Source: an uncultured Candidatus Saccharibacteria bacterium (GTDB lineage: Bacteria; Patescibacteriota; Minisyncoccia; Phycocordibacterales; PALSA-1337). Taken from it: 64,000 nt of DNA. Location: positions 131,406-195,405 of the forward strand of contig CAZLCD010000001.1 in assembly GCA_964558375.1 (NCBI GenBank), read 5' to 3'. The notes beneath the pieces are model-generated. The model searched no databases, was not told where the DNA came from, and worked only from the letters and a program-made list of their open reading frames with translations. The first letter of the stretch is position 1. Every line of letters starts with the position of its first letter. Positions 1,179-62,059 of the stretch are shown one piece after another. The position numbers were made by a program, and so were the translations under genes.

Positions 1179-1535
1179 ATGGAAATTAAGAAGAATACTC
1201 TGGTTAATAAATTTTTCTCTATACTTATATCGCTAACCCTCTTAAGTGCTTTTATTTCAACCTATTATAACTATATGATAAAGATGGAGCACAATTATTT
1301 AGTGGAGGAAAAATGTAATCCAGATACCGAAAAATGTTTCTATAGAGATTGCGATGGTGATCCAGACAGTTGTCCACCAAACAATTTTTCTTACTATAAA
1401 ATTTTTAACATAAAAGCTCATAATTTTAGTAGATGTGAAGATGGTTCTTGTAAAAATGTCTGTAGTCTAGATGAGTCGGTTTGTCAGTATATCTCTTGTG
1501 AAGAAAATGAAGGCAATATGTGTGTGGGTATGTAG
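1179..1535 (+). CDS. Small Cys-rich secreted/membrane-anchored protein (10 Cys)
   Basis: N-terminal hydrophobic segment then ten cysteines in a 75-aa D/E/N-rich tail; upstream of unknown ORF and sensor kinase. Confidence 0.4.
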   Translation: MEIKKNTLVNKFFSILISLTLLSAFISTYYNYMIKMEHNYLVEEKCNPDTEKCFYRDCDGDPDSCPPNNFSYYKIFNIKAHNFSRCEDGSCKNVCSLDESVCQYISCEENEGNMCVGM

Positions 1536-2404: not shown

Positions 2405-4048
2405 ATGGAACTTACATGTACAGGAGCTGTGGAATATGGATCAATAATATATTATTCTCATCTAATTCCAATTGGACTAATCATGGTATTATCTGTTTTT
2501 GTTTTTATAAAATCCGAATTTTCTTTTATATCAAGAATATTTCTCACATTCTCCAGTATATTTTCACTATGGTTATTGGGAGATGTTGTTGCTTGGGTAT
2601 CCACAGACTACAATATAATTTCATTTTTCTGGTCATCGCTTGACTATATAAATATACTATTCTATCTTTTTGCGCTATATTTCTTTTTTGTTGTTGTAAA
2701 AGGAAAAGATTTGTCTTTTATATATAAAATATTCCTAACTATATTATCTTTGCCAGCATGGTTTCTGACTATAAGTAATCTATCGATAGTGGAATTTGAT
2801 ACTACATGGTGTGAGGCTATAAATAATGAATTTCTAACAAACTATAAATTGGCCATAGAGGCTATCGTTATTGCATTCATAATTATTATTTCTATATACG
2901 AATTATTTAAAAAAATAGATTATTCACATAAAAAGAAAGTTGTCGTAGTTTCTGTTGCTCTAATTTTGTTCTTCCTTATATTTTCTATTACAGAATATAT
3001 ATCTAGCACCACAGGAGTCTACGAAATTAATTTATATAGTCTTTTTATACTTCCGGTATTTCTTTTTATAATCATATTTTCTACAATAAATCTTAAGGTT
3101 TTTAATATCAAACTAGCTGGCACACAGTTATTGGTCTACACAATGATTATTCTTGTCGGCTCACAATTCTTTTTTCTTGAAAATACTACGAGTCAAGTTT
3201 TAACCATTAGTACTTTTATATTATCGCTATCCTTTGGTGTTGTCCTAGTGAAAGATGCAAAACAGCAGGTCCTCCAACGCGAGCGTATCGAAGCTCTGGC
3301 TATCGACTTAAGAAAAGCCAATGATCGACTAACGGAGCTTGATATACAGAAAAGTGAATTCGTTTCGTTTGCCAGCCATCAGCTACGTGCGCCACTTACT
3401 GCTATTAAGGGCTACTCATCGCTACTTTTGGAAGGGGAGTTTGGGGCGATAGGGAAGGAAACAACCGAGGCCATTAGTCGTATTTTTGAAAGTTCAAAGA
3501 CATTGGCAACTATGGTTGATGACTATTTAAATATCTCAAGAATAGAGTTGGGTACGATGAAATATTCTTTCGATATGATAGATCTCAAAGAATTGGCTCA
3601 AAATGTTATAGCTGAACTCAAGCCAAATATTGAAAAAAGTAAGCTCGACTTTACTTTTGCAACCGATCCTGCGGATCCGAAAGAGAGATTTATGATACAT
3701 GCTGATAAAAATAATTTAAAGCAAGTTGTCGGCAACCTTATAGACAATTCTATAAAATATACTCCAAGTGGTTCCATCAAGGTTTTGCTTGCCAAAAATA
3801 AAGAAACAAGAAAAATTATTTTCTCTATCAAAGACACCGGAGTGGGGATAGATCCAGCTGTGATGCCAAAGCTTTTTTCAAAATTTGTCAGGGCACTCAA
3901 TGCTGATAAGCAGAATATTTATGGTACGGGCTTAGGGCTTTTCGTGGCTAAAGAGATAGTGCTCGCACACAAAGGCCGCCTTTGGGCTGAGTCAAAGGGG
4001 GAGGGTAAAGGCTCTACGTTTTTCTTGGAGATGGATATGGAGGTTTAG
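2405..4048 (+). CDS. Sensor histidine kinase with N-terminal multi-TM (about 8 helices) sensor
   Basis: H-box SHQLRAPLTAIKGY, HATPase motifs DTGVGI and GTGLGL; long hydrophobic N-terminal half. Confidence 0.8.
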   Translation: MELTCTGAVEYGSIIYYSHLIPIGLIMVLSVFVFIKSEFSFISRIFLTFSSIFSLWLLGDVVAWVSTDYNIISFFWSSLDYINILFYLFALYFFFVVVKGKDLSFIYKIFLTILSLPAWFLTISNLSIVEFDTTWCEAINNEFLTNYKLAIEAIVIAFIIIISIYELFKKIDYSHKKKVVVVSVALILFFLIFSITEYISSTTGVYEINLYSLFILPVFLFIIIFSTINLKVFNIKLAGTQLLVYTMIILVGSQFFFLENTTSQVLTISTFILSLSFGVVLVKDAKQQVLQRERIEALAIDLRKANDRLTELDIQKSEFVSFASHQLRAPLTAIKGYSSLLLEGEFGAIGKETTEAISRIFESSKTLATMVDDYLNISRIELGTMKYSFDMIDLKELAQNVIAELKPNIEKSKLDFTFATDPADPKERFMIHADKNNLKQVVGNLIDNSIKYTPSGSIKVLLAKNKETRKIIFSIKDTGVGIDPAVMPKLFSKFVRALNADKQNIYGTGLGLFVAKEIVLAHKGRLWAESKGEGKGSTFFLEMDMEV

Positions 4049-4877: not shown

Positions 4878-6626
4878 ATGTTCATCGAAGATTCACAGCT
4901 TAATAAATTTATCCTTGATTCAAATCTTATATCAAAGGCTGATCTGGATTTGGCTGCAATTGAGGCAAAAGAAAAAGGCGTACGCCTCGGAGATATTCTA
5001 GTTAATACTGGCAAAATCACTGCCGATAATCTTCGCAGAATGCAAGCCTATGTGCTCGGTATACCTTTCGTTGATTTGAAAAATATAAAGATCCCTCTTG
5101 AGACTTTGTCTATGATCCCTGAGCCTGTAGCTCGCAATCACAATATCGTCGCTTTCAAAAAAGATGAACAATCCATGGAAGTGGCTATGCTCGATGTAGA
5201 TGATCTTTCTGCAATTGACTTCGTCAAGAAAAAAGTTTCTCTAAAGATTCTGCCAAGACTAACGGATTCAGAATCCATCAAGAATGCCATTATCCAATAT
5301 CAAAAGAGTTTGAAAGCCGAGTTTGGTGATCTTATTCAAAAAGAAACTGATGCACTAAAAACCGCTGTAGAAAAAACAGGGAATCCGACAACCGAAGAGG
5401 ATTTGAAAAAGGTAGCTTCTGACCTACCTGTGGTGCATATAGTCGACACTCTTCTCAAGCATGCTATTTTGCAAAATGCTTCAGATATACACATAGAGCC
5501 TATGGAAGAATCGTTACTTGTGAGATATCGCATCGATGGTCTGCTAAACGATGCTATGATTTTGCCGAAAAATGCTGAAGCCTCTATCACAGCGCGTATC
5601 AAAGTTCTTTCGAACTTGAAACTTGATGAGAAGCGCTTGCCACAAGATGGTCGCTTCAAGATAGAGATGAATGGAGAGAAGGTGAGCTTCCGAGTCTCGC
5701 TATTGCCGACCTACTATGGAGAAAAGACCGTGATGCGTCTCTTGCGAGAAAGTGTCTCTGGTTTTACTTTGGAATATCTTGGATTTCATGGTGAGGCTTT
5801 GGAGAGGATACATCATGCTAGTACTTTGACTACAGGTATGATACTCACCACTGGTCCTACAGGTTCCGGAAAGACCACAACCCTCTATACTATTCTCGAT
5901 ATTCTCAATCAGCCAGATGTCAACATTTCAACCATCGAAGATCCAGTGGAGTATCAAATGAAAAGAATTAATCAGACACAAGTAAAGCCTGATATTGGTT
6001 TTACATTTGCCTCGGGTTTGAGAACACTTGTCAGACAGGATCCAGATGTGATCATGGTTGGTGAGATTCGAGACAATGAAACTGCTTCACTTGCCGTCAA
6101 TGCCGCTTTGACTGGTCACCTTGTGCTCTCTACTCTACACACAAACAGCGCAGCTGGAGCTATACCGAGATTTTTGGATATGAAGATCGAACCATTCCTC
6201 TTGGTTTCTACGATCAATGTGATCATCGCTCAGAGGCTTGTGCGAAAGCTTTCTGAAAGTAAGCAGCAATATTTTTTGAATGCAGAAGAATTGGCAGTCT
6301 TGGCCAAAAGTGTCGATCTCGACAGGGTACTCGAAGCATTGAAGGTTGAGAAAGTAGTGAAGCCAGAGGATACTTGGGATAAGATTCCTTTGTATAAAGC
6401 TGTACCTTCGAAAGATAATGATGGATACAAAGGGCGTATCGGTATTCACGAAGTTTTGAAAGTTACACCGACCATCAAGGAACTTATCATCAAAGGTGCC
6501 ACTTCAGGCGAGATAGAAATCCAGGCCAAAAAGGAAGGCATGCTTACCATGATCGAAGATGGAATTTTCAATGTTGTTTCTGGTCGTACAACAATAGAAG
6601 AGGTGTTAAGGGTGATCTCCGAATAA
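4878..6626 (+). CDS. pilB: Type IV pilus / T2SS assembly ATPase (GspE/PilB family)
   Basis: N-terminal T2SSE_N-like domain, Walker A GPTGSGKTT, Asp box, His box (TGHLVLSTLHTN). Confidence 0.85.
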   Translation: MFIEDSQLNKFILDSNLISKADLDLAAIEAKEKGVRLGDILVNTGKITADNLRRMQAYVLGIPFVDLKNIKIPLETLSMIPEPVARNHNIVAFKKDEQSMEVAMLDVDDLSAIDFVKKKVSLKILPRLTDSESIKNAIIQYQKSLKAEFGDLIQKETDALKTAVEKTGNPTTEEDLKKVASDLPVVHIVDTLLKHAILQNASDIHIEPMEESLLVRYRIDGLLNDAMILPKNAEASITARIKVLSNLKLDEKRLPQDGRFKIEMNGEKVSFRVSLLPTYYGEKTVMRLLRESVSGFTLEYLGFHGEALERIHHASTLTTGMILTTGPTGSGKTTTLYTILDILNQPDVNISTIEDPVEYQMKRINQTQVKPDIGFTFASGLRTLVRQDPDVIMVGEIRDNETASLAVNAALTGHLVLSTLHTNSAAGAIPRFLDMKIEPFLLVSTINVIIAQRLVRKLSESKQQYFLNAEELAVLAKSVDLDRVLEALKVEKVVKPEDTWDKIPLYKAVPSKDNDGYKGRIGIHEVLKVTPTIKELIIKGATSGEIEIQAKKEGMLTMIEDGIFNVVSGRTTIEEVLRVISE

Positions 6627-6647: not shown

Positions 6648-7871
6648 ATGCCACATTTTATTTTTAAAGCAAAAAATTCTAGCGGACAAGTATACAAAGA
6701 TGAAAGAGATGCGAAGGATCGCTATGAACTTTACCGAATACTAAAAGAAAATGGTGAAGAAATAATAAAGATTAAGGAAAGAGAACACAGTATGTTTTCC
6801 TTCGCTAGACTTACGGCGCTTCTGCCCTTTGGCCATTCCATAAAGATCCAAGAGAAAATAACTTTGGCCAGAAATCTTGGAGCCATGATCACTGCCGGAC
6901 TTTCCATGTCACGCGCTTTGTCCGTGATCGAAAGACAAAGCAACAACAAGCTTCTGAAGAGGATTTTGAATACCTTAAAAACCAAAATCAGTGAAGGAAA
7001 GACCCTAAGTGAGGCTATGGGGCTTTATAAAAACATTTTTTCACCTATCTTCGTCTCTATGGTCAAAGCGGGGGAGCAGAGTGGAACTTTGGCGGAGTCT
7101 CTGCGAGTAGTGGCGGTGCAGATGGACAAATCCTTTGCTCTGCAAAGAAGAGTAAGGGGAGCCATGATGTATCCAGGCGTGATCCTTATCGCCATGATAC
7201 TTATTGCTATACTTATGCTTACATATATCGTTCCGACCTTGATGAAAACATTTACAGAACTAAAGCTCGATCTTCCTGCTTCTACAAAGTTTGTACTCTG
7301 GACTAGTAGCCTTGTAAGAGAGCATGGGTTCTTTCTTTTCTTGGCAATAGCAGTGGGACTTGGAATCTTTGTGGCTTGGTCCAAGCGCGCTTCTGGCAAA
7401 AAGGTTATACATTATGCCATTTTAAAAATCCCCATCATCGGCAACATTATCAAAGAGATTAACACTGCAAGAACAGCCAGAACTCTCTCTTCACTTATTT
7501 CGTCCGGTGTGGATATGATAGAAGCTATAAACATCACTACAGATGTTGTACAGAATGTGCACTATAAAGCGGTATTGAAAGAGACAAGTGAGGTGGTCAA
7601 AGCGGGAGGTCCGATGTCGGAAGTCTTCAGTCGGCATACCAAACTTTATCCGATCTTTATCGGAGAAATGATGAGTGTGGGTGAAGAAACTGGAAAGATA
7701 GGGGAGATGCTCCTCGGTGTGGCGGTGTTCTATGAAGATGATGTAGAACAAAAGACCAAGGACATGTCCACTGTGATCGAGCCTTTCCTTATGGTGACTA
7801 TCGGTGCGGTGGTCGGGTTCTTTGCAGTTGCGATGATTTCACCTATGTACTCATTGGTCAATGTAATCTAA
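6648..7871 (+). CDS. pilC: Type IV pilus / T2SS platform protein (GspF/PilC family)
   Basis: 407 aa, two GspF repeats, three TM segments, immediately downstream of pilB. Confidence 0.85.
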   Translation: MPHFIFKAKNSSGQVYKDERDAKDRYELYRILKENGEEIIKIKEREHSMFSFARLTALLPFGHSIKIQEKITLARNLGAMITAGLSMSRALSVIERQSNNKLLKRILNTLKTKISEGKTLSEAMGLYKNIFSPIFVSMVKAGEQSGTLAESLRVVAVQMDKSFALQRRVRGAMMYPGVILIAMILIAILMLTYIVPTLMKTFTELKLDLPASTKFVLWTSSLVREHGFFLFLAIAVGLGIFVAWSKRASGKKVIHYAILKIPIIGNIIKEINTARTARTLSSLISSGVDMIEAINITTDVVQNVHYKAVLKETSEVVKAGGPMSEVFSRHTKLYPIFIGEMMSVGEETGKIGEMLLGVAVFYEDDVEQKTKDMSTVIEPFLMVTIGAVVGFFAVAMISPMYSLVNVI

Positions 7872-9671
7872 ATGCCAAATCAAATTAAATTTAAACAAGG
7901 TTTCACTCTAGTCGAAGTTCTAGTCGGTATCGCCGTTTTTCTTTTGATCGCTACAGCTTCTTATCAAGCTTATATAAGCCTCTTTACTTTGATAAATTTG
8001 AATCAATACAAAATCACCGCGCTCAATCTGGTTAATGAGCAATTTGAAATTATTCGCAATCTTCCATACGCAGATGTTGGTGTGCAGGGAAGTATTCCAA
8101 AAGGCAAAATCCCTCATACACAGACTCTGACTCGAAGTGGTGTCACATTTGTAGTGACAGCAACGATCAGAAATGTTGATCTGCCTTTCGACGGAACTAT
8201 CGGTGGAAGTCCAAATGATCTTTCACCTTCGGATAATAAAATAGTTGAGATTCAAGTAGACTGTGCAAGTTGTAAAAGCTTTACACCTCTTAGTCTGACC
8301 ACAACAGTGGCACCGAAGAACTTGGAGACAGCTTCTACAAATGGTGCTCTATTTATCAGAGTCTTTGATGCAAATGGTATAGCTATACCTGATGCTTCGG
8401 TACATATTGTAAACAATAAGGTCAGCCCTGCTATCACAATCGATGATGTGACAGATGTAAACGGTATGCTTCAGATAGTTGATGTGCCTCCAGGTACCAA
8501 TGCCTATGAGATCACGGTTAGTAAAAATGGATATTCAAGCGATAGGACATATACGCCAGGAACACTAGAAAATCCAGATCCCACACAACCACATGCCAAT
8601 GTTCTTATTCAGCAAGTAACTCAAATAAGTTTTGTTATAGATCGACTCAGTACACTTTCATTCTCAAGTGTTACACCGACATGCCAAGCCGTGCCAAATA
8701 TTGACTTCAATTTGACTGGTGCAAAAACAATAGGCACCAATATCCCAAAATATTCACAGAACCTTATTACCAATAGCAGTGGAGTTTATTCAAACAGCGC
8801 AATAGAGTGGGATACGTATCAAGTTCTTGTGAATGATGCAGATTACAATATTATAGGCCTCAATCCTTTAAATCCTATTCTTCTAAATCCCAATAGTTCA
8901 CAGAATGTTCGACTCATTTTACAACCAAAGGATCCAAATACTTTACTTGTCACTATCAAAGATAGTGCTACGAATCTTCCTTTGACTGATGCTATGATCA
9001 AGGTGACAGGTCCAGCGTCTTTTAATGAGACCAAGATTTCTGGTCGAGGATTTATCAATCAGACGAACTGGTCTGGAGGTCCGAATCAAACTTTATACAC
9101 AGATCTGATCAAATATTTCTTTGATGATGGTAGTACAGAAATCGCCTCGCCCACTGGAGAGATCAAATTGAAAAATGTATTCGGCGCATATAACCCTAGT
9201 GCTGTGCTCGAATCCTCAACTATCGACACTGGATCTGTCAGTAATTTTTACAATCTGACTTGGGGTCCTGTGGATCAGCCTGTGCTTGCGGGGCCAGAAA
9301 GTGTGAAGTTCCAATTTGCAAGCAATGATAGTGATCCTGCGACCACAACATGGGAATATGTCGGTCCAGATGGCGCGACAACCACCTATTACACTTCTTC
9401 CAATACTTCGCTTTCATCTATTCACAATGGAGATCGCTATGCTCGCTACAAAGTTTTCTTGAAAACAGATTCGACCACCGTCACACCAAACATCTCTGAT
9501 GTGGCTTTCACTGTGACATCATCTTGTACACCTCCAGGGCAAGTCGTATTTTCTGGTTTGCCTTTAGGTACCTATCATGTCGAAGTCGGCAAGAGTGGGT
9601 ACGCTACCTCAACGCTTGATGTCGACTTGAATGTTCCATGGAAGGAGCAGGAGATGATTTTAAACCAATAA
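7872..9671 (+). CDS. Large prepilin-like protein (class III signal, 599 aa) with Ig-like/carboxypeptidase-regulatory-like repeats
   Basis: N-term KFKQGFTLVEVLVGIAVF (G|FTLVE with Glu+5); beta-rich T/S/N-rich body with motifs like IRVFDANGIAIPDASVHIV and GTYHVEVGKSGYATS. Confidence 0.7.
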   Translation: MPNQIKFKQGFTLVEVLVGIAVFLLIATASYQAYISLFTLINLNQYKITALNLVNEQFEIIRNLPYADVGVQGSIPKGKIPHTQTLTRSGVTFVVTATIRNVDLPFDGTIGGSPNDLSPSDNKIVEIQVDCASCKSFTPLSLTTTVAPKNLETASTNGALFIRVFDANGIAIPDASVHIVNNKVSPAITIDDVTDVNGMLQIVDVPPGTNAYEITVSKNGYSSDRTYTPGTLENPDPTQPHANVLIQQVTQISFVIDRLSTLSFSSVTPTCQAVPNIDFNLTGAKTIGTNIPKYSQNLITNSSGVYSNSAIEWDTYQVLVNDADYNIIGLNPLNPILLNPNSSQNVRLILQPKDPNTLLVTIKDSATNLPLTDAMIKVTGPASFNETKISGRGFINQTNWSGGPNQTLYTDLIKYFFDDGSTEIASPTGEIKLKNVFGAYNPSAVLESSTIDTGSVSNFYNLTWGPVDQPVLAGPESVKFQFASNDSDPATTTWEYVGPDGATTTYYTSSNTSLSSIHNGDRYARYKVFLKTDSTTVTPNISDVAFTVTSSCTPPGQVVFSGLPLGTYHVEVGKSGYATSTLDVDLNVPWKEQEMILNQ

Positions 9672-9673
9672 AA

Positions 9674-10303
9674 ATGATAAGAAAGAATATGAGAAAAAAT
9701 AATTTTAAAAAAGGTTTTACTTTAACAGAGATTGTTGTTGTACTCGGTATTCTTGGTTTAATTATGTTATCTGTGAGTTCTTTTCAAAGGGATGTGCTTG
9801 TTAATAATAAATTTTCTTCAGATTCTCTGACAACAATAGAAAACGCTAGGCCGATAATGAGAACAATTATAAGAAGTCTGCGCTCTGCTGGACCAAGTGA
9901 CAATGGCTCTTATGCTATAGCTCAAGCAGCTACAAATACGATCACCTTTTTTAGCGACGCAGATCTTGATGGTTTGAAAGAGCAGATAAGGTATTTCGTG
10001 CAGGGTACGGATCTAAAAATGGGATATGTGAAGCCTACCGGTTCTCCTTTGACTTACAATCAAGCCAATGAAGTGATCACTATCTTGGCCAATAGTGTGA
10101 AGAATGCTACAAGCACGGGGCTTTTTGAATATTATGATAAAAACTATACGGGTACGACCTCACCCATGACTTTACCTATCAATGTAACCTCTGTGCGTCT
10201 TATCAAGGTAAATCTAATGATAGATATAGACCCTAGCCGTTCGCCAGTACCTCGAATATATACTTCGCAAGTTAATATAAGAAATTTAAAGGATAATTTA
10301 TGA
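9674..10303 (+). CDS. Pseudopilin / minor pilin
   Basis: N-term KKGFTLTEIVVVLGILG prepilin cleavage/methylation motif with Glu+5. Confidence 0.65.
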   Translation: MIRKNMRKNNFKKGFTLTEIVVVLGILGLIMLSVSSFQRDVLVNNKFSSDSLTTIENARPIMRTIIRSLRSAGPSDNGSYAIAQAATNTITFFSDADLDGLKEQIRYFVQGTDLKMGYVKPTGSPLTYNQANEVITILANSVKNATSTGLFEYYDKNYTGTTSPMTLPINVTSVRLIKVNLMIDIDPSRSPVPRIYTSQVNIRNLKDNL

Positions 10304-11772
10304 AAAAAGAAAATTTAAAAAATAAAAGTGCTTTTGAGAGAGGAATGATTTTGGTCAATGTTATGGTCTTTGGATTTATTGCAATCATTGTGACTACGGC
10401 TTTGGTCAATTGGGGAGGGACTATGCTTAAGAATACAAAGAATCTTTCGCTAAATGAACAGGCCTTTCAGATCGCTGAAGCAGGGATTGACTATTATCGT
10501 TGGCATTTGGCGCATGCACCGACGGATTATAAAGATGGCACAGGCTCTGCTGGCAACGGCCCATTTGTCCATGATTTTAAAGATAAGGATGGGAATGTTA
10601 TAGGGCAATTTGCTTTAACCATCACACCACCCTTAGTCGGCTCAACCTTGGTTAGAATCAAATCCACAGGAACAGTTATTGAAAGTCCATCAATCTCTCG
10701 TTCTATCGAAGTTAGCTTAGCTATTCCATCTTTTGCAAAATACGCTGCTGTGTCGAATAGTGTTATACGTTTTGGATCAGGAACAGAGGTGTTTGGACCA
10801 ATTCATTCAAATGATGGAGTGAGGTTCGATGGACTTGCGCACAATATAATAAGTAGTGCTAAAGATAAATACATTGATCCAGATCAGGGTTCTCATACCC
10901 CTGCATGGTATCAGTTCGGTGTCTATACAGTAGTTAATCCTTCAGAGTTAAATACAGATAGCACTCCACCGACTACAATTCCAAATCGTCCAGATGTATT
11001 CATGGTTGGAAGACAATTTCCTGTACCTGCGGTGGACTTTGTTGGTATTACAACCGAACTTTCTGCTATGAAAACTCAAGCGCAAGCTAATAACAGATAC
11101 TATGCCGCTTCAGGTGCTCAGGGTTATAGGATTGTACTCAAAACAACCGACAGATTTGATCTTTATAGAGTTACATCATTACATGCTGCTCCAAACAACT
11201 GTAATAATTCACAAAATCAAACAGGTTGGGGTACATGGAGTATTAATAATCAGACTTTAATAAGTAGTAATGTAACTTTTCCTGCCAATGGAATAATTTT
11301 TGTTGAAGATAATTTGTGGGTTGAGGGACAGATAAATACCGCAAGACTTACTATTGCTGCAGGCAGATTCCCAGATAGTCCAAGTACTCGCAAAGATATT
11401 ACTATAAATAATAATTTGTCATATACCAACTATGATGGTCAAGATGCAATTGCTCTAGTTGCTCAGGGGAATATTACTACAGGCTTGCATAGTGCTAGTA
11501 ACTTGCGTGTAGATGCCGCACTTATTGCTCAGAACGGTAGAGTTGGGAGATTTTATTATTCAAGTAATTGCGGTGCCAACTATGTACGTTCGGCCATAAC
11601 TTTGTTTGGTATGATCGGCACCAATCTTCGTTATGGTTATGCTTATACTGATAATACTGGATATTTAATACGAAATATTATTTATGATAGTAATCTTCTA
11701 TACTCTCCACCACCGAGCTTTCCTTTGACTTCTGATCAATATGTAACCCTATCTTGGGAAGAGGTTCAGTAA
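10300..11772 (+). CDS. PilX-like minor pilin / pilus-associated protein (490 aa)
   Basis: N-terminal hydrophobic PilX_N-like segment (GMILVNVMVFGFIAIIVTTALV), large beta-rich C-terminal region; overlaps upstream stop by 4 nt. Confidence 0.45.
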   Translation: MKKENLKNKSAFERGMILVNVMVFGFIAIIVTTALVNWGGTMLKNTKNLSLNEQAFQIAEAGIDYYRWHLAHAPTDYKDGTGSAGNGPFVHDFKDKDGNVIGQFALTITPPLVGSTLVRIKSTGTVIESPSISRSIEVSLAIPSFAKYAAVSNSVIRFGSGTEVFGPIHSNDGVRFDGLAHNIISSAKDKYIDPDQGSHTPAWYQFGVYTVVNPSELNTDSTPPTTIPNRPDVFMVGRQFPVPAVDFVGITTELSAMKTQAQANNRYYAASGAQGYRIVLKTTDRFDLYRVTSLHAAPNNCNNSQNQTGWGTWSINNQTLISSNVTFPANGIIFVEDNLWVEGQINTARLTIAAGRFPDSPSTRKDITINNNLSYTNYDGQDAIALVAQGNITTGLHSASNLRVDAALIAQNGRVGRFYYSSNCGANYVRSAITLFGMIGTNLRYGYAYTDNTGYLIRNIIYDSNLLYSPPPSFPLTSDQYVTLSWEEVQ

Positions 11773-12559: not shown

Positions 12560-13600
12560 ATGAAAAGCATAAAAGAAATAGAAAATTTGCAGGGAGTAAG
12601 GGTCTTGGTTCGTCTCGATTTAAACGTGCCTATTGCAAATGGGATTATTACCGATGATTTTCGTATACGAAAGGCATTGCCAACCATAGAATTTCTGAGA
12701 AGGGGTGGCGCGCAAATTATTTTGATAAGTCATATAGAGACTAAGGAAAATCCGACACTTGAGCCAGTTGCCGACTATTTAAATAAAATCGGCATCATCT
12801 GTCGTTTCGAAAAAGATTATAAAAAAGTTTTAAATTCAAAAGAGCCGATCATCTTGCTCGAAAATCTTCGAAAGTATGAAGGTGAAAAAAATAATGATAA
12901 AAAGTTTGCAAAAGAACTAGCTTCTCTGGCTGATATTTATGTAAATGAAGCCTTCTCGGTTTCGCATCGTAAACATGCGTCTGTCTCTGCCATAACGGAG
13001 TTTATACCAAGCTATGTCGGATTTCAATTTGAAGAAGAGATTAAAAATCTTAGCTCAGCTTTCAATCCAGAACACCCCTTTCTCTTTATTCTTGGTGGCG
13101 CAAAGTTTGATACCAAGCTGCCTTTAGTTGAGAAATTTATTTCTATTGCTGACAAAGTTTTTATCGGCGGCGCTTTGGCTAATGATTTCTTTAAAGAGCA
13201 GGGGAAGGATATCGGGACATCTTTGATTTCCGAAGTTAAGGTGGATTTGAAAAATATCCTAGGTAACGAAAAATTACTTTTACCAGTGGATAGCGTTTTA
13301 AAAGATACAGCTATTATGGATGCAGGAGATAAGACTATAGAAATGCTGGCGGGAGAGATCGCGAAGGCAAAATATATTCTCTGGAATGGACCTCTCGGCG
13401 CTTACGAGACTGGTTTTAAAGATGCAACTATCAAGCTCGCAAAACTTCTAGCGGAAGCCACAGCCAATGGTGCTAAGACTATCGTGGGCGGAGGGGATAC
13501 TCTAGCGGCTATAAGCGAACTCAAACTAGAAGATTCCTTTACTTTTGTTTCTACGGGCGGTGGAGCAATGCTTGACTATCTTGCCAAAGGGGAATTGTAA
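12560..13600 (+). CDS. pgk: Phosphoglycerate kinase (short form)
   Basis: VRLDLNVP...ITDDFRI...PTIEFL N-domain motifs; C-terminal GGGDT/GGGA nucleotide-binding motifs. Confidence 0.75.
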   Translation: MKSIKEIENLQGVRVLVRLDLNVPIANGIITDDFRIRKALPTIEFLRRGGAQIILISHIETKENPTLEPVADYLNKIGIICRFEKDYKKVLNSKEPIILLENLRKYEGEKNNDKKFAKELASLADIYVNEAFSVSHRKHASVSAITEFIPSYVGFQFEEEIKNLSSAFNPEHPFLFILGGAKFDTKLPLVEKFISIADKVFIGGALANDFFKEQGKDIGTSLISEVKVDLKNILGNEKLLLPVDSVLKDTAIMDAGDKTIEMLAGEIAKAKYILWNGPLGAYETGFKDATIKLAKLLAEATANGAKTIVGGGDTLAAISELKLEDSFTFVSTGGGAMLDYLAKGEL

Positions 13601-13652
13601 AAAGAATTATGGGTGGATAGTCTATTTTAATTTTATATACTATAATTACGTT

Positions 13653-14843
13653 ATGAAATTAACAATGAAATCAATAAAACTTTTTGGTATTTTAATAGTT
13701 GTTTGTTTATTAGCTTTTGGAACATTAGGTGGTATTGCTTCAGCTGAGACTTCTTGCAACTTTACCAGAACACTTTCTATAGATGATGAAGGTGAGGATG
13801 TAAGATGTTTGCAAAAGTATTTAAATAATTTAGGTTTCAAAATTTCCAATGAAGGACCTGGCTCTACAGGTAAAGAAACTTCGACATTCAAGAACCTGAC
13901 CAAGACCGCTTTAGCAAAATGGCAAACCGCCAATGGCATATCTCCTGCAACTGGGAACTTTGGACCAGCATCACGCCAAGCTTATGACAGACTGATGGCT
14001 CTTGCAGAAGCTGCAAGAACTCAAGCCCCGCAGACTACATCTATAGTTAATCCTGATCCTGTAGTGGTGGTGGCTCCTGTAGTAAAGTCTGTTGCAATGG
14101 AAAATGCAAAGACTGCAATACTCAAAGCTATGGAAGCTATCGAAAATGCAGAAGATGAGATCGATGGTTCTTCTGAAAGTGCAAATAAAATCGAAGATGC
14201 AAAGGAAGGCTTGGAGGATGCTAGGGTAGATTTTCTAAAAACTATCAAAGCGTATCTATCTGAACAATATGAACGTGCAAGCACAATAGCCAAAACTGTT
14301 TTTGAAGAAGCCGAAGAAGCTTACAAAGATGCTGGTGGGGAAACCGATGAAGACGAGATTGACGATCTTATAAATACCGTGGAGGATGAAATCGATGCAG
14401 TGAAGGTCAAGATCAAGACCGCTGATAAGGCTGGAAAAGATGTAGATGAATCCGAAAACCTTATCGATGAAGCTGAGAACCTTATAGACAAAGCAGATAC
14501 AAAGCTCGATGAAGGTGATACAGAAGAAGCTGAAGACCTTGCAAAAGACGCTAGAAATAAAGCTGAGGATGCAGAAGATGCAATAGGTGAAAAGAGCAAT
14601 GACTTGGAAAATGCCGAGGATGCAATAGCTGATGCAAAAGATGCTATAAAAAAAGCTAAAGCTGAAATACGCGAAGCACAGGATGATGACAAAAATACAA
14701 ATGATGCTGAAGACTTACTAGATGACGCAGAGAATTTGTACGATAAAGCTCGAGAAGAGTTTGATGATGAGGATTATGACAATGCAAAAGATCTAGCAGA
14801 AGATGCAGAGAAAAAAGCAGAGGATGCTATAGATGAGTTGTAA
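13653..14843 (+). CDS. Secreted protein with peptidoglycan-binding domain and long acidic (D/E/A/K) helical repeat tail
   Basis: Signal/TM MKLTMKSIKLFGILIVVCLLAF; PG_binding_1-like CLQKYLNNLGF...ALAKWQTANGI; about 250 aa of DAEDA/ENLID repeats. Confidence 0.55.
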   Translation: MKLTMKSIKLFGILIVVCLLAFGTLGGIASAETSCNFTRTLSIDDEGEDVRCLQKYLNNLGFKISNEGPGSTGKETSTFKNLTKTALAKWQTANGISPATGNFGPASRQAYDRLMALAEAARTQAPQTTSIVNPDPVVVVAPVVKSVAMENAKTAILKAMEAIENAEDEIDGSSESANKIEDAKEGLEDARVDFLKTIKAYLSEQYERASTIAKTVFEEAEEAYKDAGGETDEDEIDDLINTVEDEIDAVKVKIKTADKAGKDVDESENLIDEAENLIDKADTKLDEGDTEEAEDLAKDARNKAEDAEDAIGEKSNDLENAEDAIADAKDAIKKAKAEIREAQDDDKNTNDAEDLLDDAENLYDKAREEFDDEDYDNAKDLAEDAEKKAEDAIDEL

Positions 14844-14848
14844 TCTGC

Positions 14849-15211
14849 ATGGAAAATTGTATATTTTGTAAAATAGTAAAAAAGGAAATACCGGCTCATA
14901 TAGTCTATGAAGATGAAAAGTTTTTGGCGTTCTTGGATATTCATCCAGTATCGTTGGGTCACACCCTCATAATTCCAAAAACTCACTATAGATGGGTATG
15001 GGATGTTCCAGAACTAGGATCTTATTTTGAATTTGTTGGAAAAATTGCAAAGGCACAACAAAAGGCATTTGGTCATGAAGCAATCTGGAGCGGAATACGT
15101 GGAGACGAAGTGCCACATGCGCACATTTCAGTAATGCCTCACTCTGAAACGATCGGCGACAAGAAAAACTTTGAAGAAAATAGGCTAAAGATAGCTGATA
15201 ATATACGATAG
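14849..15211 (+). CDS. HIT-family (histidine triad) hydrolase
   Basis: HTLIIPKTH and HAHISVMPH (HxHxH-type) motifs. Confidence 0.8.
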   Translation: MENCIFCKIVKKEIPAHIVYEDEKFLAFLDIHPVSLGHTLIIPKTHYRWVWDVPELGSYFEFVGKIAKAQQKAFGHEAIWSGIRGDEVPHAHISVMPHSETIGDKKNFEENRLKIADNIR

Positions 15212-15227
15212 TTTTTATCATAAAAAA

Positions 15228-15270
15228 TCCCCAACCGAAGGCCGGCCGGGGGTGGGGTAGAAGGGGGTGA
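15228..15270. terminator. GC-rich stem-loop; rho-independent terminator for the minus-strand gene (T-run on minus strand), possibly bidirectional
   Basis: CCCCAACC...GGCCGGCC...GGTGGGG hairpin in AT-rich DNA between convergent genes; T6 follows on minus strand. Confidence 0.5.
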
Positions 15271-15912
15271 TCAGTAGGTTGGCACCTTACCTTCTCCAAA
15301 TTTTTCAACCAAGAAATTAATTGTGCTTTCTGGATTTGATAAAGCTATAAGAGCGTCATCAATAAACTTGCTTCTGTAGAATCTGCATGGTTCAAATGTT
15401 GTTCCATACATCGTGTAGTATGTTGCACTGAAAACTTGTAATTTCGCCTCAAACATCCCTCTTCTATTTTTCCAAGAAGTTCTAGATAGTGTAATTGCAA
15501 GCACGATCACTCTTGTGTTGTACGTAAGAGCATGCTTCTTGCCACTCTCTGTCTGGATTACAAACACAGATTCTTCTGTGTCAGGAGGGATAAGAATGCT
15601 GGGTCCAATATACGAACGTTGACGTCTAAGTTTAGCGGATATTGGTGCTCGTCTAGTCATTTCGTGTATTTCAAACAGTCTAGCTAGATAATCACGAAAC
15701 CCACTATTTTCTTTTCCAGAACGAAGCATTGAGGGGAGATTACGTCTAGCTCCTTTCAGGATGTCTGCGATCTTCTTTTCCCTAATAATCGATCTACGTC
15801 TTTTGATTTTAGTTATCCCTCTATCATTAGGGTGACTAGTCTTAGCTCCAGCTTCTCTGTGTTTTGCGATCTGGTCGTTTAGTAAATAGTCGATACTGTG
15901 TGTAATTTTCAT
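15271..15912 (-). CDS. Hypothetical Arg/Lys-rich protein (monocistronic unit)
   Basis: ATG at 15912 preceded by AAGGA RBS; own terminator; basic composition; no recognised catalytic motif. Confidence 0.45.
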   Translation of the reverse strand: MKITHSIDYLLNDQIAKHREAGAKTSHPNDRGITKIKRRRSIIREKKIADILKGARRNLPSMLRSGKENSGFRDYLARLFEIHEMTRRAPISAKLRRQRSYIGPSILIPPDTEESVFVIQTESGKKHALTYNTRVIVLAITLSRTSWKNRRGMFEAKLQVFSATYYTMYGTTFEPCRFYRSKFIDDALIALSNPESTINFLVEKFGEGKVPTY

Positions 15913-16035
15913 AATCCTTAATCCTGCACCGCGGTTAAATTGGCAATGAGCCAATACATTCTGGCTCTATTTATACTCTTTTAAATAATCTAGTCAATCC
16001 TCATAAAAATTCCATCATGTTATACTTCCATCCAC

Positions 16036-17730
16036 ATGAAAAACTATAAAATCCGAGAAAAAATTAATGGTGATTTCATTGATCATCTTCTTTTCTATCG
16101 CAATATAAAGACTCCAGAAGCAAAGCAAGCTTTCTTAAATCCAAATTATGACGAACATATCCTCGATCCATTTTTATTGAAAGATGCAGAAAAATCAGCC
16201 AAAAGAATAGTCGAAGCTATAGAAAAAAGTGAAAAAATAGTGATATATAGTGACTATGATGCCGACGGTATACCTGCCGGGGTTATCTTCCATGACTTCT
16301 TTAAAAGGATCGGTTTTAAAAATTTTATAAATTATATTCCACATAGGCATGATGAAGGCTTTGGTCTAAACACTGACGCTATAGATCAATTTGTGAAAGA
16401 TAAAGTGGATCTTCTGATTACTCTTGATTGTGGAATTTCTGATATTGAAGCTGTAAAATTGGCAAAAGAAAATAAAATAGACGTAATCATTACAGATCAT
16501 CATGAGCCTCATGAGATTTTGCCAGACGCCTTTGCTATCGTTGATCATAAGCAGAAAGATTGCAATTATCCTGAAAAGATCCTTTGCGGTTCTGGTGTTG
16601 GATTCAAATTGATTCAAGCTGTACTTAAGGTCAAAAGATTTGATATGAAAGAAGGTCAAGAAAAATGGCTACTTGATATGGTAGGTATCGCTACACTTTC
16701 GGATATGGTTCCTTTGACGGGGGAGAATAGGGCTCTGGCACACTTTGGTTTGCGGGTTTTAAAGATCAGTCCACGTAAAGGTTTGATGAGACTTCTAAAT
16801 CATTTAAAAATTCCTCAGAAACATTTAACCGAAGATGATATAGGCTTTATGATTACACCACGTATCAATGCGGCATCACGAATGGGAATACCTATGGATG
16901 CCTTCAAATTGCTTTCAACAGATGATGACAACGAAGCTCATACCTTTGTAGAGCATCTTGATAAAATAAATACAGAGAGAAAAAGTGTAGTAGCCGGCCT
17001 TGTAAAAGAAGTAAAGAAGATTATGAAAGAAAGAAATAAAGATAATACTCGCAATGTCATAGTGATGGGTAATCCAGATTGGAAGCCATCTTTACTTGGG
17101 CTTGTAGCCAACAATCTTGCGGAAGAGTTCGGTAAGCCAGCTTTTCTTTGGGGGCGCGATGGAGATGGTGTTATCAAAGGCTCATGTCGTTCGGGGGATA
17201 CGGTCAGTGTTGTTGAGATTATGAACAAAAGTAAAGACGGAACCTTTATCCAGTATGGTGGACACTTTGCTTCTGGAGGCTTCGTGGTTTCAAATGAAGC
17301 TATACATCATCTCGACGATCATCTCAATGCTTCTTTTGATATTTTAAAAAAAGAAAATCTTATCAAAGAACCAGACTTTATAGATATGCAAATTTCTTTG
17401 GAGGAGGTCAATTGGAATACTTATAGTGATGTAGAGAAGCTGGCGCCTTTCGGTGTTGGCAATCATAAACCGCTTTTTATTTTTAAAAATATTAAAATTG
17501 CTGGTATCAAAGAATTTGGCAAAGAAAAGAATCATCTTGAATTAAGTTTTAAAAAAGAAAATGGACAACCAGTAAATGCTATCGGATTTTTCATGTTAGC
17601 CGATAATTTTAAAAATAAAGATGGAGAGACTATTAAAATAGGGGATAGTATCGATCTTATTGCTACTATGGAAAAGTCGATGTTTAGAGGAAGGGCAGAG
17701 CTAAGGATGAGGATTGTTGATATAATATAG
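16036..17730 (+). CDS. recJ: Single-stranded-DNA-specific exonuclease RecJ
   Basis: DHH motifs (YSDYDADGI, IITDHHEP), DHHA1-like region (GGHxxAxG). Confidence 0.8.
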   Translation: MKNYKIREKINGDFIDHLLFYRNIKTPEAKQAFLNPNYDEHILDPFLLKDAEKSAKRIVEAIEKSEKIVIYSDYDADGIPAGVIFHDFFKRIGFKNFINYIPHRHDEGFGLNTDAIDQFVKDKVDLLITLDCGISDIEAVKLAKENKIDVIITDHHEPHEILPDAFAIVDHKQKDCNYPEKILCGSGVGFKLIQAVLKVKRFDMKEGQEKWLLDMVGIATLSDMVPLTGENRALAHFGLRVLKISPRKGLMRLLNHLKIPQKHLTEDDIGFMITPRINAASRMGIPMDAFKLLSTDDDNEAHTFVEHLDKINTERKSVVAGLVKEVKKIMKERNKDNTRNVIVMGNPDWKPSLLGLVANNLAEEFGKPAFLWGRDGDGVIKGSCRSGDTVSVVEIMNKSKDGTFIQYGGHFASGGFVVSNEAIHHLDDHLNASFDILKKENLIKEPDFIDMQISLEEVNWNTYSDVEKLAPFGVGNHKPLFIFKNIKIAGIKEFGKEKNHLELSFKKENGQPVNAIGFFMLADNFKNKDGETIKIGDSIDLIATMEKSMFRGRAELRMRIVDII

Positions 17731-17733
17731 TTT

Positions 17734-18225
17734 ATGAATAATACAAATACAATAACAATCTTTACCGACGGTTCATCTCGTGGAAATCCTGGACGTGGAG
17801 GATGGGGTGCTATTGTTGTGTCTGGAAACGAAGTCAGAGAATTGGGTGGAAAGGAAGATCATACTACAAATAACAGAATGGAGCTTGTGGGGGCAATAGA
17901 GTCCTTAAAAAATGCTGATTCAAATTTACCTATCACCTTATATTCTGATTCTCAATACGTAATAAAAGGCATGACGGAATGGATAGCAGGGTGGCAAAAG
18001 AAAAACTGGATAAATTCTCAGAAAAAGCCGGTGATGAATCGAGATCTCTGGGAGAGTCTTCTTGAAGTTTCTTTGAATAAAAAAATAGAATGGAAATATA
18101 TAAAAGGTCATGCAGAAAATCCAGGCAACAATAGATGTGATGAGATTGCTACTTCATTTGCAGACGGAGAACCGACAAAACTATACGAAGGCTCCCTTGA
18201 CTCCTATCCCCATAAAGTTGTCTAA
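17734..18225 (+). CDS. rnhA: Ribonuclease HI
   Basis: TDGSSRGNPG...GWGA, NNRMEL, YSDSQYV, KGHAENPGNNRCDEIA. Confidence 0.85.
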   Translation: MNNTNTITIFTDGSSRGNPGRGGWGAIVVSGNEVRELGGKEDHTTNNRMELVGAIESLKNADSNLPITLYSDSQYVIKGMTEWIAGWQKKNWINSQKKPVMNRDLWESLLEVSLNKKIEWKYIKGHAENPGNNRCDEIATSFADGEPTKLYEGSLDSYPHKVV

Positions 18226-18293
18226 AGCAAATCTTTATCAAATCTTTATTATTTCTTTATCTTTTCTTAATGTCGGTTTGGTATGGTTGAGGG

Positions 18294-18785
18294 ATGATAA
18301 AAAGATTCAAAGAGTGGATAGTGCTCAAAGAAAAATTACATACAGTTTCCTATAATAAAACTCCTTATTTTAAGGAGGGAGAAATTTGGTGGTGTAGTAT
18401 AGGCGATAATGTTGGTAGTGAAATAAATGGCAAAAGTGGGTATTTCTCCAGACCAATTCTAGTTTTTAAAAAGTTCAACAAAAATTTATTTTTTGGAATA
18501 CCCTTAACTTCAAAACCAAAGATGGGTACATGGTTCGTGGGAATATCTTTTTTGAATAAGACACAGACTATTGTTTTAAGTCAGGCAAGAACTTTAGATG
18601 CAGCCAGAATTAAGGATTTAATCGGACAATGTGACGAGAGTGATTTTGAAAAGATAAAAGCTGGTTTTAGCCAGCTCTATCTAAATATTTCTCCCAATAA
18701 AGGGAGGTCGTGGGAAATCCCCAAAAATCTTCTCTTATATCTTAACAAAATAATTATACATGTCAAATCAAAATTCAAAATTTAA
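18294..18785 (+). CDS. MazF/PemK-family endoribonuclease toxin-like protein (no adjacent antitoxin seen)
   Basis: GEIWWCSIG..GSEING..RPILVF...GIPLTSKPK...VLSQARTLDAARI matches MazF/Kid core (GDIxxVDFDPTxGSEQxGxRPxVVxS...SQ). Confidence 0.6.
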   Translation: MIKRFKEWIVLKEKLHTVSYNKTPYFKEGEIWWCSIGDNVGSEINGKSGYFSRPILVFKKFNKNLFFGIPLTSKPKMGTWFVGISFLNKTQTIVLSQARTLDAARIKDLIGQCDESDFEKIKAGFSQLYLNISPNKGRSWEIPKNLLLYLNKIIIHVKSKFKI

Positions 18786-56267: not shown

Positions 56268-56582
56268 ATGATAAATACATTATTTGCAAATTCACACGGT
56301 GCTTTTCCAATGTTTGGGCTAGGCTTGGGACTATTCACTATGGGTGCGCTTTTGTTTTTTGTTCTTATGTTAGCTGTAGTTGCTCTCAAAGGCTACGCTC
56401 TATGGCATGCAGCAAAGAGAGATGAAAAGGGTTGGTTTATTGCACTTCTTTTGATCAATACTATCGGAATCTTGGAACTTGTATATCTATACTTTGTTGT
56501 TGGCAAATGGAAAAATCCTTCTAGTGAATCTTCTAGTACGCAATCGTCAAGCACTCCACATCAAGATAGCCAGCCTCAATAA
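56268..56582 (+). CDS. Small 2-TM membrane protein with Ser-rich tail
   Basis: Hydrophobic helices. Confidence 0.3.
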   Translation: MINTLFANSHGAFPMFGLGLGLFTMGALLFFVLMLAVVALKGYALWHAAKRDEKGWFIALLLINTIGILELVYLYFVVGKWKNPSSESSSTQSSSTPHQDSQPQ

Positions 56583-58321: not shown

Positions 58322-58391
58322 TTATCGATCAATAGATATACACATACAACCTATCGATATTTCTTTATTATTTTAGTATACTTAGGTTTAA

Positions 58392-59024: not shown

Positions 59025-59028
59025 CCAT

Positions 59029-59586: not shown

Positions 59587-59596
59587 TAAAAAATAT

Positions 59597-59917: not shown

Positions 59918-59928
59918 TTATAAAATAT

Positions 59929-61644: not shown

Positions 61645-61656
61645 TATAATTATCAT

Positions 61657-62058: not shown

Positions 62059-62059
62059 T

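Follow-up and report, generated by a model that had tools for sequence, protein, structure and literature searches.

A first-pass annotation had placed three open reading frames (here ORF1, ORF2 and ORF3) behind a pilB-pilC pair, and our analysis of the 64-kb window (the whole stretch of DNA that was analysed) finds all three where it put them, on the forward strand (table 1). The junctions between pilC1, ORF1, ORF2 and ORF3 are gaps of 0–2 nt or a 4-nt overlap, and the ORF1 ATG directly abuts the pilC1 stop codon. The five genes probably constitute a single operon, which would encode the motor and platform of a type IV filament together with a set of core minor pilins of its own, whose order, PilV-PilW-PilX (GspI-J-K), is the canonical one. 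In a six-frame scan of the whole 64 kb, the starts of ORF1 and ORF2 were the only places where a hydrophobic helix follows a prepilin motif. ORF2 is also called from position 9638 (221 aa) in the ORF list; its start is probably the ATG at 9674, since its orthologues are 200–210 aa long and this ATG lies 2 nt past the ORF1 stop, and the resulting length agrees with the 210 aa given for it originally. The cassette itself contains no GspH/FimU-like fourth subunit, major pilin, PilD, PilT or PilMNO, and there is no major pilin in the window. The lack of a pilD gene in the window had been noticed before, and indeed the 64 kb contain no A24 active-site motif; Peptidase_A24 was unmatched in all non-ribosomal ORFs scanned (the scan covered part of the window's ORFs), and no pilD lies downstream of pilC2 in contigs that match exactly.

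Table 1. Features of the pilB1-pilC1-ORF1-ORF2-ORF3 cassette and of the second T4P locus in the window
Feature	Position	Strand	Description
pilB1	4878..6626	+	PilB/GspE-type assembly ATPase, N-terminal MshEN domain
pilC1	6648..7871	+	PilC/GspF-type platform protein
ORF1	7872-9671	+	599-aa prepilin, N-terminus MPNQIKFKQG|FTLVEV
ORF1 pilin module	7872..8321	+	10-aa leader (KQG|F), alpha1 helix aa 13-62, GspI/PilV-like beta head aa 63-150 (predicted)
ORF1 domain 1	8334..8639	+	CarboxypepD_reg (transthyretin-like), aa 155-256
ORF1 domain 2	8643..8930	+	Ig-like beta-sandwich, aa 258-353; invariant C271
ORF1 domain 3	8934..9668	+	second CarboxypepD_reg, split: aa 355-402 and 554-599
ORF1 domain 4	9078-9530	+	~150-aa jelly-roll, aa 403-553, nested within domain 3
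ORF2	9674-10303	+	209-aa prepilin, KKG|FTLTEIV
ORF3	10300-11772	+	490 aa, N-terminus ...FERG|MILVN; predicted ComZ/PilX/GspK-type cap pilin
Second T4P machinery locus	57206-64000	+	pilM, pilN-like, pilO-like, 106-aa TM protein, pilB2, response regulator, pilT, pilC2

The class III signals of type IV prepilins that had been read in ORF1 (KQG|FTLVEV, with Glu at +5) and in ORF2 are genuine by profile search, with Pfam N_methyl and TIGR02532 above their cut-offs of 21.2 and 16.3 bits in both proteins (27.3 and 25.5 bits in ORF1, 25.6 and 24.4 bits in ORF2), and Phe+1 and Glu+5 are invariant among the ORF1 homologues. The predicted structures have the lollipop fold of type IV pilins, a long alpha1 helix on an antiparallel beta-sheet, and the ORF1 head is modelled as a small I-type pilin fold; its C131-x2-C134 pair is invariant and its Asp-rich loop (aa 103–121) conserved. 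At the sequence level, ORF1 scores 15.5 bits against TIGR01707 (gspI; cut-off 44.35) in an alignment limited to the alpha1 helix, and hhalign with E. coli GspI and PpdC aligned the helix and nothing else; an ORF1-type orthologue was independently named PilV by the IMG/JGI annotators. The beta-rich body with CarboxypepD_reg and Ig-like domains that had been proposed for ORF1 is borne out by Pfam (CarboxypepD_reg 49 bits, cut-off 32.3, and weak SpaA/PEGA matches near the C-terminus) and by the AF2 model. The domains are thus present, although "repeats" is a loose term for them: there are two CarboxypepD_reg domains, one of which is split by the jelly-roll, and a single unrelated Ig-like domain. 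The latter (strands 260–352 in the AF2 model) matched no family when scanned alone against Pfam, and it is the least conserved stretch of ORF1 (block identity 0.59–0.70). With N_methyl and PF13620 CarboxypepD_reg in one protein, ORF1 is a modular pilin as defined in PMC8179133. In distant orthologues its distal part is swapped for Laminin_G_3/DUF2341 lectin-like modules. ORF1 as a whole is acidic (pI 4.7), which gives no hint of a ligand.

ORF2 is a basic protein (pI 9.7) whose 138 homologues are each about 200–210 aa long, with G14 (Gly-1) and E19 (Glu+5) invariant, and N_methyl is the sole domain found in all 45 homologues checked for domains. Its alignment to known pilins (PDB profile search, hhalign) is confined to the alpha1 helix, and ORF2 scores 16.6 bits against the PpdB model PRK10557 (cut-off 120). 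It occupies the PilW/GspJ position of the operon and its orthologues are named PilW or PulJ by IMG; by its size, its gene position and these two names ORF2 is a candidate J/W-type subunit.

The third protein had been described as PilX-like and lacking Glu+5, and it is PilX/GspK-like in the following respects. Among 61 homologues, at least 90% keep Gly-1 and at least 90% keep Asn+5, so the missing Glu5 is a trait of the family. Its predicted layout is a leader to G15, an alpha1 helix (aa 16–70), a pilin sheet (aa ~89–141) and an ice-binding-protein (IBP)-like triangular beta-solenoid (aa ~146–465), followed by a conserved tail (aa 466–490) with a pLDDT below 50 which could supply the last strand. 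A predicted pilin fold with a large extra domain and no Glu5 is the description of a GspK/PilX cap subunit, and the pairing of pilin domain and solenoid makes ORF3, in its model, specifically ComZ-like. An ORF3-type orthologue was likewise independently named PilX by the IMG/JGI annotators. The Pfam search suggested for the trio found N_methyl and CarboxypepD_reg above cut-off, but PilX_N (PF14341) matched ORF3 below threshold, at 14.3 bits (cut-off 25.5), as did GspK (NF037980; 14.1 bits, cut-off 130); ORF3 has no significant N_methyl match, and among the 120 homologues listed only P0240 has a precomputed PF14341 match. A search of the PDB sequence set with the profile of the 61 homologues (E<=10) matched neither ComZ (6qvi) nor any pilin. 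ORF3 is near neutral (pI 6.7), which is no indication about DNA binding either way. The C-terminal regions of these proteins matched no enzyme family, as the original pilin assignment had demanded.

The two genes upstream belong to the motor superfamilies, pilB1 by Pfam T2SSE (E 9.6e-119) and MshEN (1.8e-12) and pilC1 by two stretches of T2SSF (E 2.7e-52). Both fall below the finer cut-offs, pilB1 for the equivalogs PilB (TIGR02538; 515.4 against 675.65 bits) and GspE (TIGR02533; 512.7 against 630.25 bits), and pilC1 for the NCBIfam models of GspF (301 bits) and PilC (270 bits).

Across Parcubacteria the cassette keeps its synteny. It is present in six other independent contigs (L003, L004/L005, L006/L007, L008, L009) and, in part, in L010, which is without an ORF3 orthologue, and ORF1 is linked to ORF2, ORF3 and pilB-pilC in every locus whose flanking genes were read. 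In L008 and L009 the gene immediately after the ORF3 orthologue is pilM, with pilN and pilO next. Relatives of ORF1 number 749 among 50%-identity cluster representatives (E<=1e-30), and the named homologues are Candidatus Taylorbacteria or Patescibacteria, in accord with the CPR host that had been suspected. The ORF1–3 families are conserved at a housekeeping level, on a par with TpiA, Pgk and RecJ. Such slow evolution sits awkwardly with a host-specific adhesin; in exposed proteins it points to a ligand that is itself conserved or to a role in core assembly.

Gene order, signal motifs, predicted folds, synteny and conservation together lead us to think that ORF1-ORF2-ORF3 is probably a PilV-PilW-PilX (GspI-J-K)-type priming and tip complex of modular pilins, in which extra domains have enlarged two of the three subunits. 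What had been seen as a giant pilin with two further pseudopilins is all there, and is better read as one set. A prepilin peptidase whose gene lies elsewhere would cleave ORF1 and ORF2 after Gly, and we infer that the three proteins would assemble on PilC1 into a quasi-helical heterotrimer, which would nucleate polymerisation of a major pilin (its gene presumably elsewhere) and finish at the filament tip. ORF3 would sit on top as a cap or plug, as its lack of Glu5 and its rigid beta-solenoid suggest. ORF1 would be a GspI-like subunit with an extension of about 450 residues (two transthyretin-like domains, one Ig-like and one nested jelly-roll domain), and may project a stalk that bears a ligand-binding module, whose ligand is most likely a glycan; the catalogue of modular pilins counts PF13620 among their carbohydrate-binding-like modules (PMC8179133), and the lectin-like swaps in distant orthologues speak for such an arm. 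Several observations count against a tip set: the GspI, GspK and PilX_N scores below cut-off, the alignment of ORF2 to known pilins by alpha1 alone, and the absence of H/FimU, major pilin, PilD, PilT and PilMNO from the cassette. A PilB and PilC of its own would be superfluous for a mere alternative tip set, and conservation at the TpiA/Pgk/RecJ level is unusual for exposed tip adhesins.

This is no new type of machine, as modular pilins, ComZ-type PilX proteins and CPR T4P have all been described; the trio is a conserved but uncharacterised case of a design known from other bacteria. Its order and number are those of GspI-GspJ-GspK and T4aP PilV-PilW-PilX, which are proposed to prime assembly and cap the tip (PMC9934059). 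As here, the K subunit lacks Glu5 and has an extra domain, putatively inserted in ORF3, and the predicted ORF1 fold is I-like. On the other hand the H/FimU subunit and PilY1 of those sets are absent, the insert is a beta-solenoid in the ORF3 prediction and an alpha-domain in GspK, and ORF1 is four to five times the size of GspI. Streptococcus sanguinis PilA-PilB-PilC, a tip complex of three operon-encoded minor pilins of which two are modular (PMC9934059), also belongs to a monoderm-type T4P and includes one subunit without Glu5 and one that is GspI-like (PMC9934059, PMC8179133). There, however, the GspI-like PilA is small and itself lacks Glu5, whereas the 599-aa ORF1 has it; the modules are vWA and a ConA-like lectin rather than transthyretin-like, Ig-like, jelly-roll and beta-solenoid domains; and the two trios have no sequence homology. 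The IPR012902 + PF13620 pilins, among the frequent modular-pilin architectures in Raynaud et al. 2021 (PMC8179133), share with ORF1 the prepilin motif and the CarboxypepD_reg "carbohydrate-binding-like" module. The TM7x proteins PilX1 and PilX2 are likewise large minor pilins from a CPR bacterium; their signals are non-canonical, their modules are jelly-rolls or beta-propellers, and PilX2 contributes to host binding (PMC11623550). The former are catalogue items, and the latter, which are likened to ORF1 and ORF3 by description, belong to other loci; moreover, the TM7x pilins are reported to be poorly conserved across Patescibacteria, unlike the ORF1–3 families.

T4P are the prime candidates for the means by which ultrasmall CPR bacteria locate their hosts, stay attached to them and acquire DNA, and they are essential in Saccharibacteria (PMC10633639). 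The trio offers, in the much less studied Parcubacteria, a widely conserved and concrete target, a three-protein tip set with good structural models in which one subunit resembles a known DNA receptor and another has swappable distal modules. The pilus may serve adhesion or DNA capture, the two roles that had been tentatively suggested for it. A competence pilus would have ORF3 as a ComZ-like DNA receptor at the tip and ORF1 as its PilA2-like, GspI-type partner, with retraction handing DNA over to ComEC, either for transformation or to scavenge nucleotides; this concerns the function of the filament and is compatible with the tip-complex architecture, but we consider it unlikely. Thermus thermophilus ComZ-PilA2 is a tip complex, and ComZ binds both the GspI-like PilA2 (6qvf) and dsDNA, the latter with no preference for sequence, and is needed for transformation and not for piliation (PMC6561018); like ORF3, it has neither a canonical pilin signature nor a standard prepilin call. 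Besides comEC (18760-20142), the window contains recJ and a ComFC-like gene, in L006 and L007 the cassette is likewise followed by recJ-rnhA-comEC, a universal ligand such as DNA would account for the housekeeping-level conservation, and Saccharibacteria, the only Patescibacteria tested, are naturally competent via ComEC (PMC10633639). However, ORF3 is 15% identical to ComZ in the structural alignment and has no detectable sequence homology to it, so the DNA-binding lysines of ComZ are not mappable on ORF3; ORF3 is neutral and ORF1 acidic; and comEC lies 7 kb away, with glycolytic and other genes between. PilA2 has only a small subdomain in place of the 450-residue extension of ORF1, and Thermus is a diderm whose operon includes the major pilin PilA4. 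In Saccharibacteria the T4P genes are essential and comEC is not (PMC10633639), and TM7x T4P-2 mutants retain normal competence (PMC11623550). The solenoid fold is itself no proof of DNA binding, since cyanobacterial PilX proteins combine pilin and solenoid in both competence-type and motility/EPS-type sets (bioRxiv 10.64898/2026.02.12.705559). Those proteins, likened to ORF3 by architecture and by its predicted fold, share their sets with PilV- and PilW-type pilins, as here. It has been proposed that they plug the filament tip, taking the place of PilY1 in lineages that lack it, and that they prime distinct filaments (bioRxiv 10.64898/2026.02.12.705559). Cyanobacteria are diderms of a different phylum, and one machinery serves both of their sets, whereas the present cassette has its own PilB and PilC.

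A more speculative reading, which we regard as improbable, makes the cassette the core of a distinct, ancient and housekeeping-grade Parcubacteria/Paceibacteria filament with its own PilB/PilC motor, in which a ComZ-like, DNA-capturing ORF3 solenoid would be combined with a lectin-like ORF1 arm on the GspI-type subunit, which is normally tiny. If this were so, one organelle would serve both for docking on a glycan conserved in the host envelope and for the uptake of DNA or nucleotides, and tip proteins that evolve as slowly as glycolytic enzymes would be explained.

A secretin-less, T2SS-like pseudopilus, a short piston driven by GspE/GspF with an I-J-K-like tip that exports proteins through the cell wall without a long pilus, is very unlikely. 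PilC1 does score better against GspF than against PilC and PilB1 equally against GspE and PilB, three pilin-like proteins match the T2SS tip set I-J-K, the cassette has no retraction ATPase, and some orthologues are annotated "T2SS". Yet every GspE and GspF score is under its equivalog cut-off, there is no GspG-like major pseudopilin, GspL, GspM, GspC or GspD, and orthologous cassettes are joined to pilM-N-O, which encode T4aP-type alignment proteins. External modules of 300–450 residues on tip subunits suit display on a fibre better than a piston, and CPR bacteria have no outer membrane (PMC6744442). It is hardly credible that ORF1 is no filament subunit at all but a surface stalk protein with a class III signal as mere anchor or export signal and a purely regulatory adjacency to pilB-pilC: it is very large for an I-type subunit and its body resembles the multi-domain CnaB/Ig stalks of sortase-anchored adhesins (Foldseek E 4e-10 to 1e-4), but the TM-scores to these are only ~0.15, its linkage to the other four genes is constant in the loci whose flanking genes were read, and it has a complete predicted GspI-like head with invariant Phe1 and Glu5.

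A second T4P locus, absent from the first-pass annotation, lies at the right end of the window, which cuts off pilC2 at position 64000. PilM_2 (E 5.4e-33), Response_reg and T2SSF were matched there, as was T2SSE in both pilB2 and pilT, and the PilO match is weak. The pilB1 and pilB2 products are 39% identical and those of pilC1 and pilC2 26%. The presence of two T4P loci parallels the distinct cyanobacterial sets that prime distinct filaments, and PilMNO and PilT, absent from the cassette, probably come from the second locus.

The giant prepilin and the two pseudopilins that the first-pass annotation had picked out from the sequence are real and were correctly read, and we judge that description accurate because the open reading frames, the signal motifs and a CarboxypepD_reg match all bear it out. 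They are the products of ORF1, ORF2 and ORF3, the last three of five tightly packed genes (table below). The ORF1 protein begins MPNQIKFKQG/FTLVEV and ORF2 contains KKG/FTLTEIV (slashes separate positions -1 and +1); both exceed the Pfam N_methyl and TIGR02532 cut-offs, in agreement with the class-III signal with Glu+5 described for the first and with the second pilin of 210 amino acids described for the other. The third protein, of 490 amino acids, indeed has no Glu+5, its N-terminal region reading FERG/MILVN with asparagine at that position. A start at 9638 had been listed for ORF2; it is contradicted by the ATG at 9674 and by orthologues of 200–210 amino acids, and we prefer the 209-amino-acid form because its length agrees with theirs. 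In a six-frame scan of the 64-kb window, a prepilin motif followed by a hydrophobic helix was found only at the starts of ORF1 and ORF2. Scans for promoters and terminators found no more than expected from shuffled sequence and did not mark an operon boundary.

Features of the two pilus loci and their surroundings, in window coordinates
Feature	Position	Strand	Remarks
118-aa Cys-rich membrane-anchored protein	1179-1535	+	upstream of cassette
histidine kinase	2405-4048	+	long multi-TM N-terminal region; upstream of cassette
pilB1	4878-6626	+	first cassette gene
pilC1	6648-7871	+	stop codon abuts ORF1 ATG
ORF1	7872-9671	+	599 aa
ORF2	9674-10303	+	209 aa; ATG 2 nt after ORF1 stop
ORF3	10300-11772	+	490 aa; 4-nt overlap with ORF2
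PG_binding_1 protein	13545-14843	+	N-terminal membrane anchor; weak DUF4398 match
recJ	16036-17730	+	
PemK/MazF-like toxin	18294-18785	+	overlaps comEC start
comEC	18760-20142	+	Competence and DUF4131 domains
recG	49385-51673	-	
ComFC-like protein	56533-57168	-	phosphoribosyltransferase domain; adjoins pilM
second type IV pilus locus	57206-64000	+	pilM, pilN-like, pilO-like, 106-aa TM protein, pilB2, response regulator, pilT, pilC2

By the definition of Raynaud et al., ORF1 counts as a "modular pilin", and the combination of N_methyl and PF13620 already figures among the most frequent architectures that they list (PMC8179133). It has a CarboxypepD_reg match above threshold (49 bits) and weak SpaA/PEGA matches at the C-terminus. 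Its AlphaFold2 model (62 sequences as input, mean pLDDT 85) has an α1 helix at residues 13–62, a small β head at 63–150 and an all-β body thereafter, much as the proposed carboxypeptidase-regulatory/Ig-like β body would have it. The order predicted from the model is leader, α1, GspI-like head, a first CarboxypepD_reg domain (155–256), an Ig-like domain (258–353) and a second CarboxypepD_reg domain, inside which a predicted jelly-roll (403–553) is nested. Residues 354–402 and 554–599, when joined, cover PF13620 positions 2–71 of 82 in one stretch (E = 4e-6, under the gathering score), and the ~150 residues between 402 and 554 have no family match. Foldseek matched ORF1 to the multi-domain stalks found in sortase pilins and adhesins; the E-values were good, but TM-scores were ~0.15. 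Kinship with phage nozzle proteins was rejected, the likeness being that of a generic jelly-roll only (~130 residues, 9–13% identity). An enzymatic C-terminal domain, the finding that was to count against the pilin reading, was likewise rejected, as enzyme families match nowhere along the protein.

ORF3 lacks Glu5 as a family character, since, among 61 homologues, at least 90% keep Gly-1 and at least 90% keep Asn+5. Its PilX_N match is sub-threshold, as is a GspK match. Its model (mean pLDDT 80) shows a helix at 10–70, a four-stranded sheet at 89–141 and a long β-rich domain to ~462. In Thermus ComZ, too, an IBP-like β-solenoid is joined to a GspK-like pilin domain, and the likeness is at the level of fold only; a sequence search with the ORF3 family profile did not find ComZ, and in PDB sequence searches with ORF1, ORF3 and the profiles A1–A3 matches were confined to the α1 helix. 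The ComZ solenoid has room only at the fibre tip, and the protein binds double-stranded DNA and the GspI-like pilin PilA2 (PMC6561018). All cyanobacterial PilX proteins are reported to carry the same inserted solenoid, proposed to be a tip plug that replaces PilY1, and different minor-pilin sets are proposed to prime distinct filaments in those organisms (2026 preprint, 10.64898/2026.02.12.705559). Invariant cysteines suggest disulfides, C131/C134 and C271/C552 in ORF1 and C301/C424 in ORF3. Two further segments, the Asp-rich loop DLPFDGTIGGSPNDLSPSD of ORF1 (amino acids 103–121, window 8178–8234) and the C-terminal tail LLYSPPPSFPLTSDQYVTLSWEEV of ORF3 (amino acids 466–490, window 11695–11769), are near-invariant in homologues and have pLDDT around or below 50; each may be a partner or ion-binding site (metal site or subunit interface).

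The middle protein, ORF2, is basic (pI 9.7), and beyond its N-terminal helix nothing was matched by a PDB profile search, by Pfam on 45 homologues or by hhalign. The hhalign comparisons of three profiles with E. coli GspG-K, PpdA-C and YgdB aligned the N-terminal helix only and did not tell H, I, J and K apart, so its J/PilW role is putative; its size, its mid-operon position and two IMG names given to orthologues (PilW and PulJ) lend it weak support.

ORF1 gave 1870 matches at E ≤ 1e-3 in a word-indexed search, the best 120 of which are all full-length and 56–98% identical, and its profile found 749 proteins at E ≤ 1e-30 among 1.84 billion 50%-identity cluster representatives; ORF3 gave 3684 matches and ORF2 138. 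A scan of genome contigs with a single protein returned 3 loci only. ORF1 variants include short forms (~445 amino acids) that stop after the Ig-like domain and long forms of 720–1443 amino acids. Wherever flanking genes could be read, the pilB-pilC-ORF1-ORF2-ORF3 order is constant, except in a Staskawiczbacteria contig (L010), whose cassette contains insertions and is missing the ORF3 orthologue; a PemK toxin gene (L010 5513–5914), Bro-N and restriction-modification genes are inserted there. Another contig, of 1.5 Mb (L009), has at 14409–19989 a cassette with a 1443-amino-acid ORF1 orthologue, followed by two consecutive pilM-pilN-pilO sets. Saccharibacteria pilins have been reported to be poorly conserved (PMC11623550); in contrast, ORF1 (62–67% identity), ORF2 (58–63%) and ORF3 (67–68%) are about as conserved as TpiA, Pgk, RecJ and PilC of the same genomes (62–72%), and in a more distant contig labelled Saccharibacteria (L003) the values are 48, 43 and 50% versus 50–55% for TpiA, Pgk and RecJ. 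Conserved positions are distributed over the full length of the cassette's pilin-like proteins.

The second pilus locus, which the first-pass annotation did not mention, has a pilC2 that runs past the window end. PilB1 and PilB2 are 39% identical and PilC1 and PilC2 26%, and both pairs are old paralogues. A scan of the window for the A24 motif was negative, in accord with the statement that pilD is not there, and motif scans of the window found no major pilin; neither gene is in the cassette or the second locus, which in three contigs with an identical PilT (L011–L013) has pilC2 as its last gene and includes neither pilD nor pilins.

The simplest reading is that the cassette would encode the minor pilins of a core set, arranged in the canonical V-W-X (I-J-K) order, together with its own motor and platform. 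Such a set would nucleate the filament and then stay at its tip, with ORF3 as the putative cap because it lacks Glu5 and carries a rigid solenoid. We consider this tip-complex architecture for ORF1-ORF2-ORF3 likely; the closest functional analogues are the Streptococcus sanguinis PilABC tip complex (PMC9934059) and Thermus ComZ-PilA2. The filament may serve adhesion or DNA capture. For adhesion speak the modules of ORF1 and its orthologues that are carbohydrate-binding-like or of lectin type (DUF2341 and Laminin_G_3 in that of Staskawiczbacteria) and precedents in Saccharibacteria, in which type IV pili are essential independently of comEC (PMC10633639, PMC11623550). For DNA capture speak the resemblance of ORF3 to ComZ, the comEC, recJ and comFC genes close by and the slow evolution of the cassette proteins; motility-type cyanobacterial PilX proteins share the same solenoid, which weakens any DNA binding read from the fold. 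A competence-specific role seems rather doubtful. Both in L009 and in a complete genome of Candidatus Nomurabacteria, pilM-N-O comes straight after ORF3, and this links the cassette to a machine of the T4aP type. That the cassette builds a secretion pseudopilus is unlikely, as is a non-pilus anchor role for ORF1. The cassette does not reveal a new kind of system. As a member of classes already known (modular minor pilins, ComZ-type PilX and CPR type IV pili), it is well conserved and uncharacterised, and it is of moderate interest as an experimental target.

The G+C content is ~38%, and named homologues come from Candidatus Taylorbacteria, Paceibacterota and the "Patescibacteria group". Downstream of the cassette lie tpiA, pgk, the gene for a PG-binding acidic protein (its C-terminal half is long, extremely acidic and Asp/Glu/Lys-rich), a HIT protein gene, recJ, rnhA, the PemK toxin gene and comEC. 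The DNA uptake and processing genes (comEC, recJ, the ComFC-like gene and recG) are dispersed around both pilus loci. An orthologue of the upstream histidine kinase, 51% identical, occupies the same position in contig L001.
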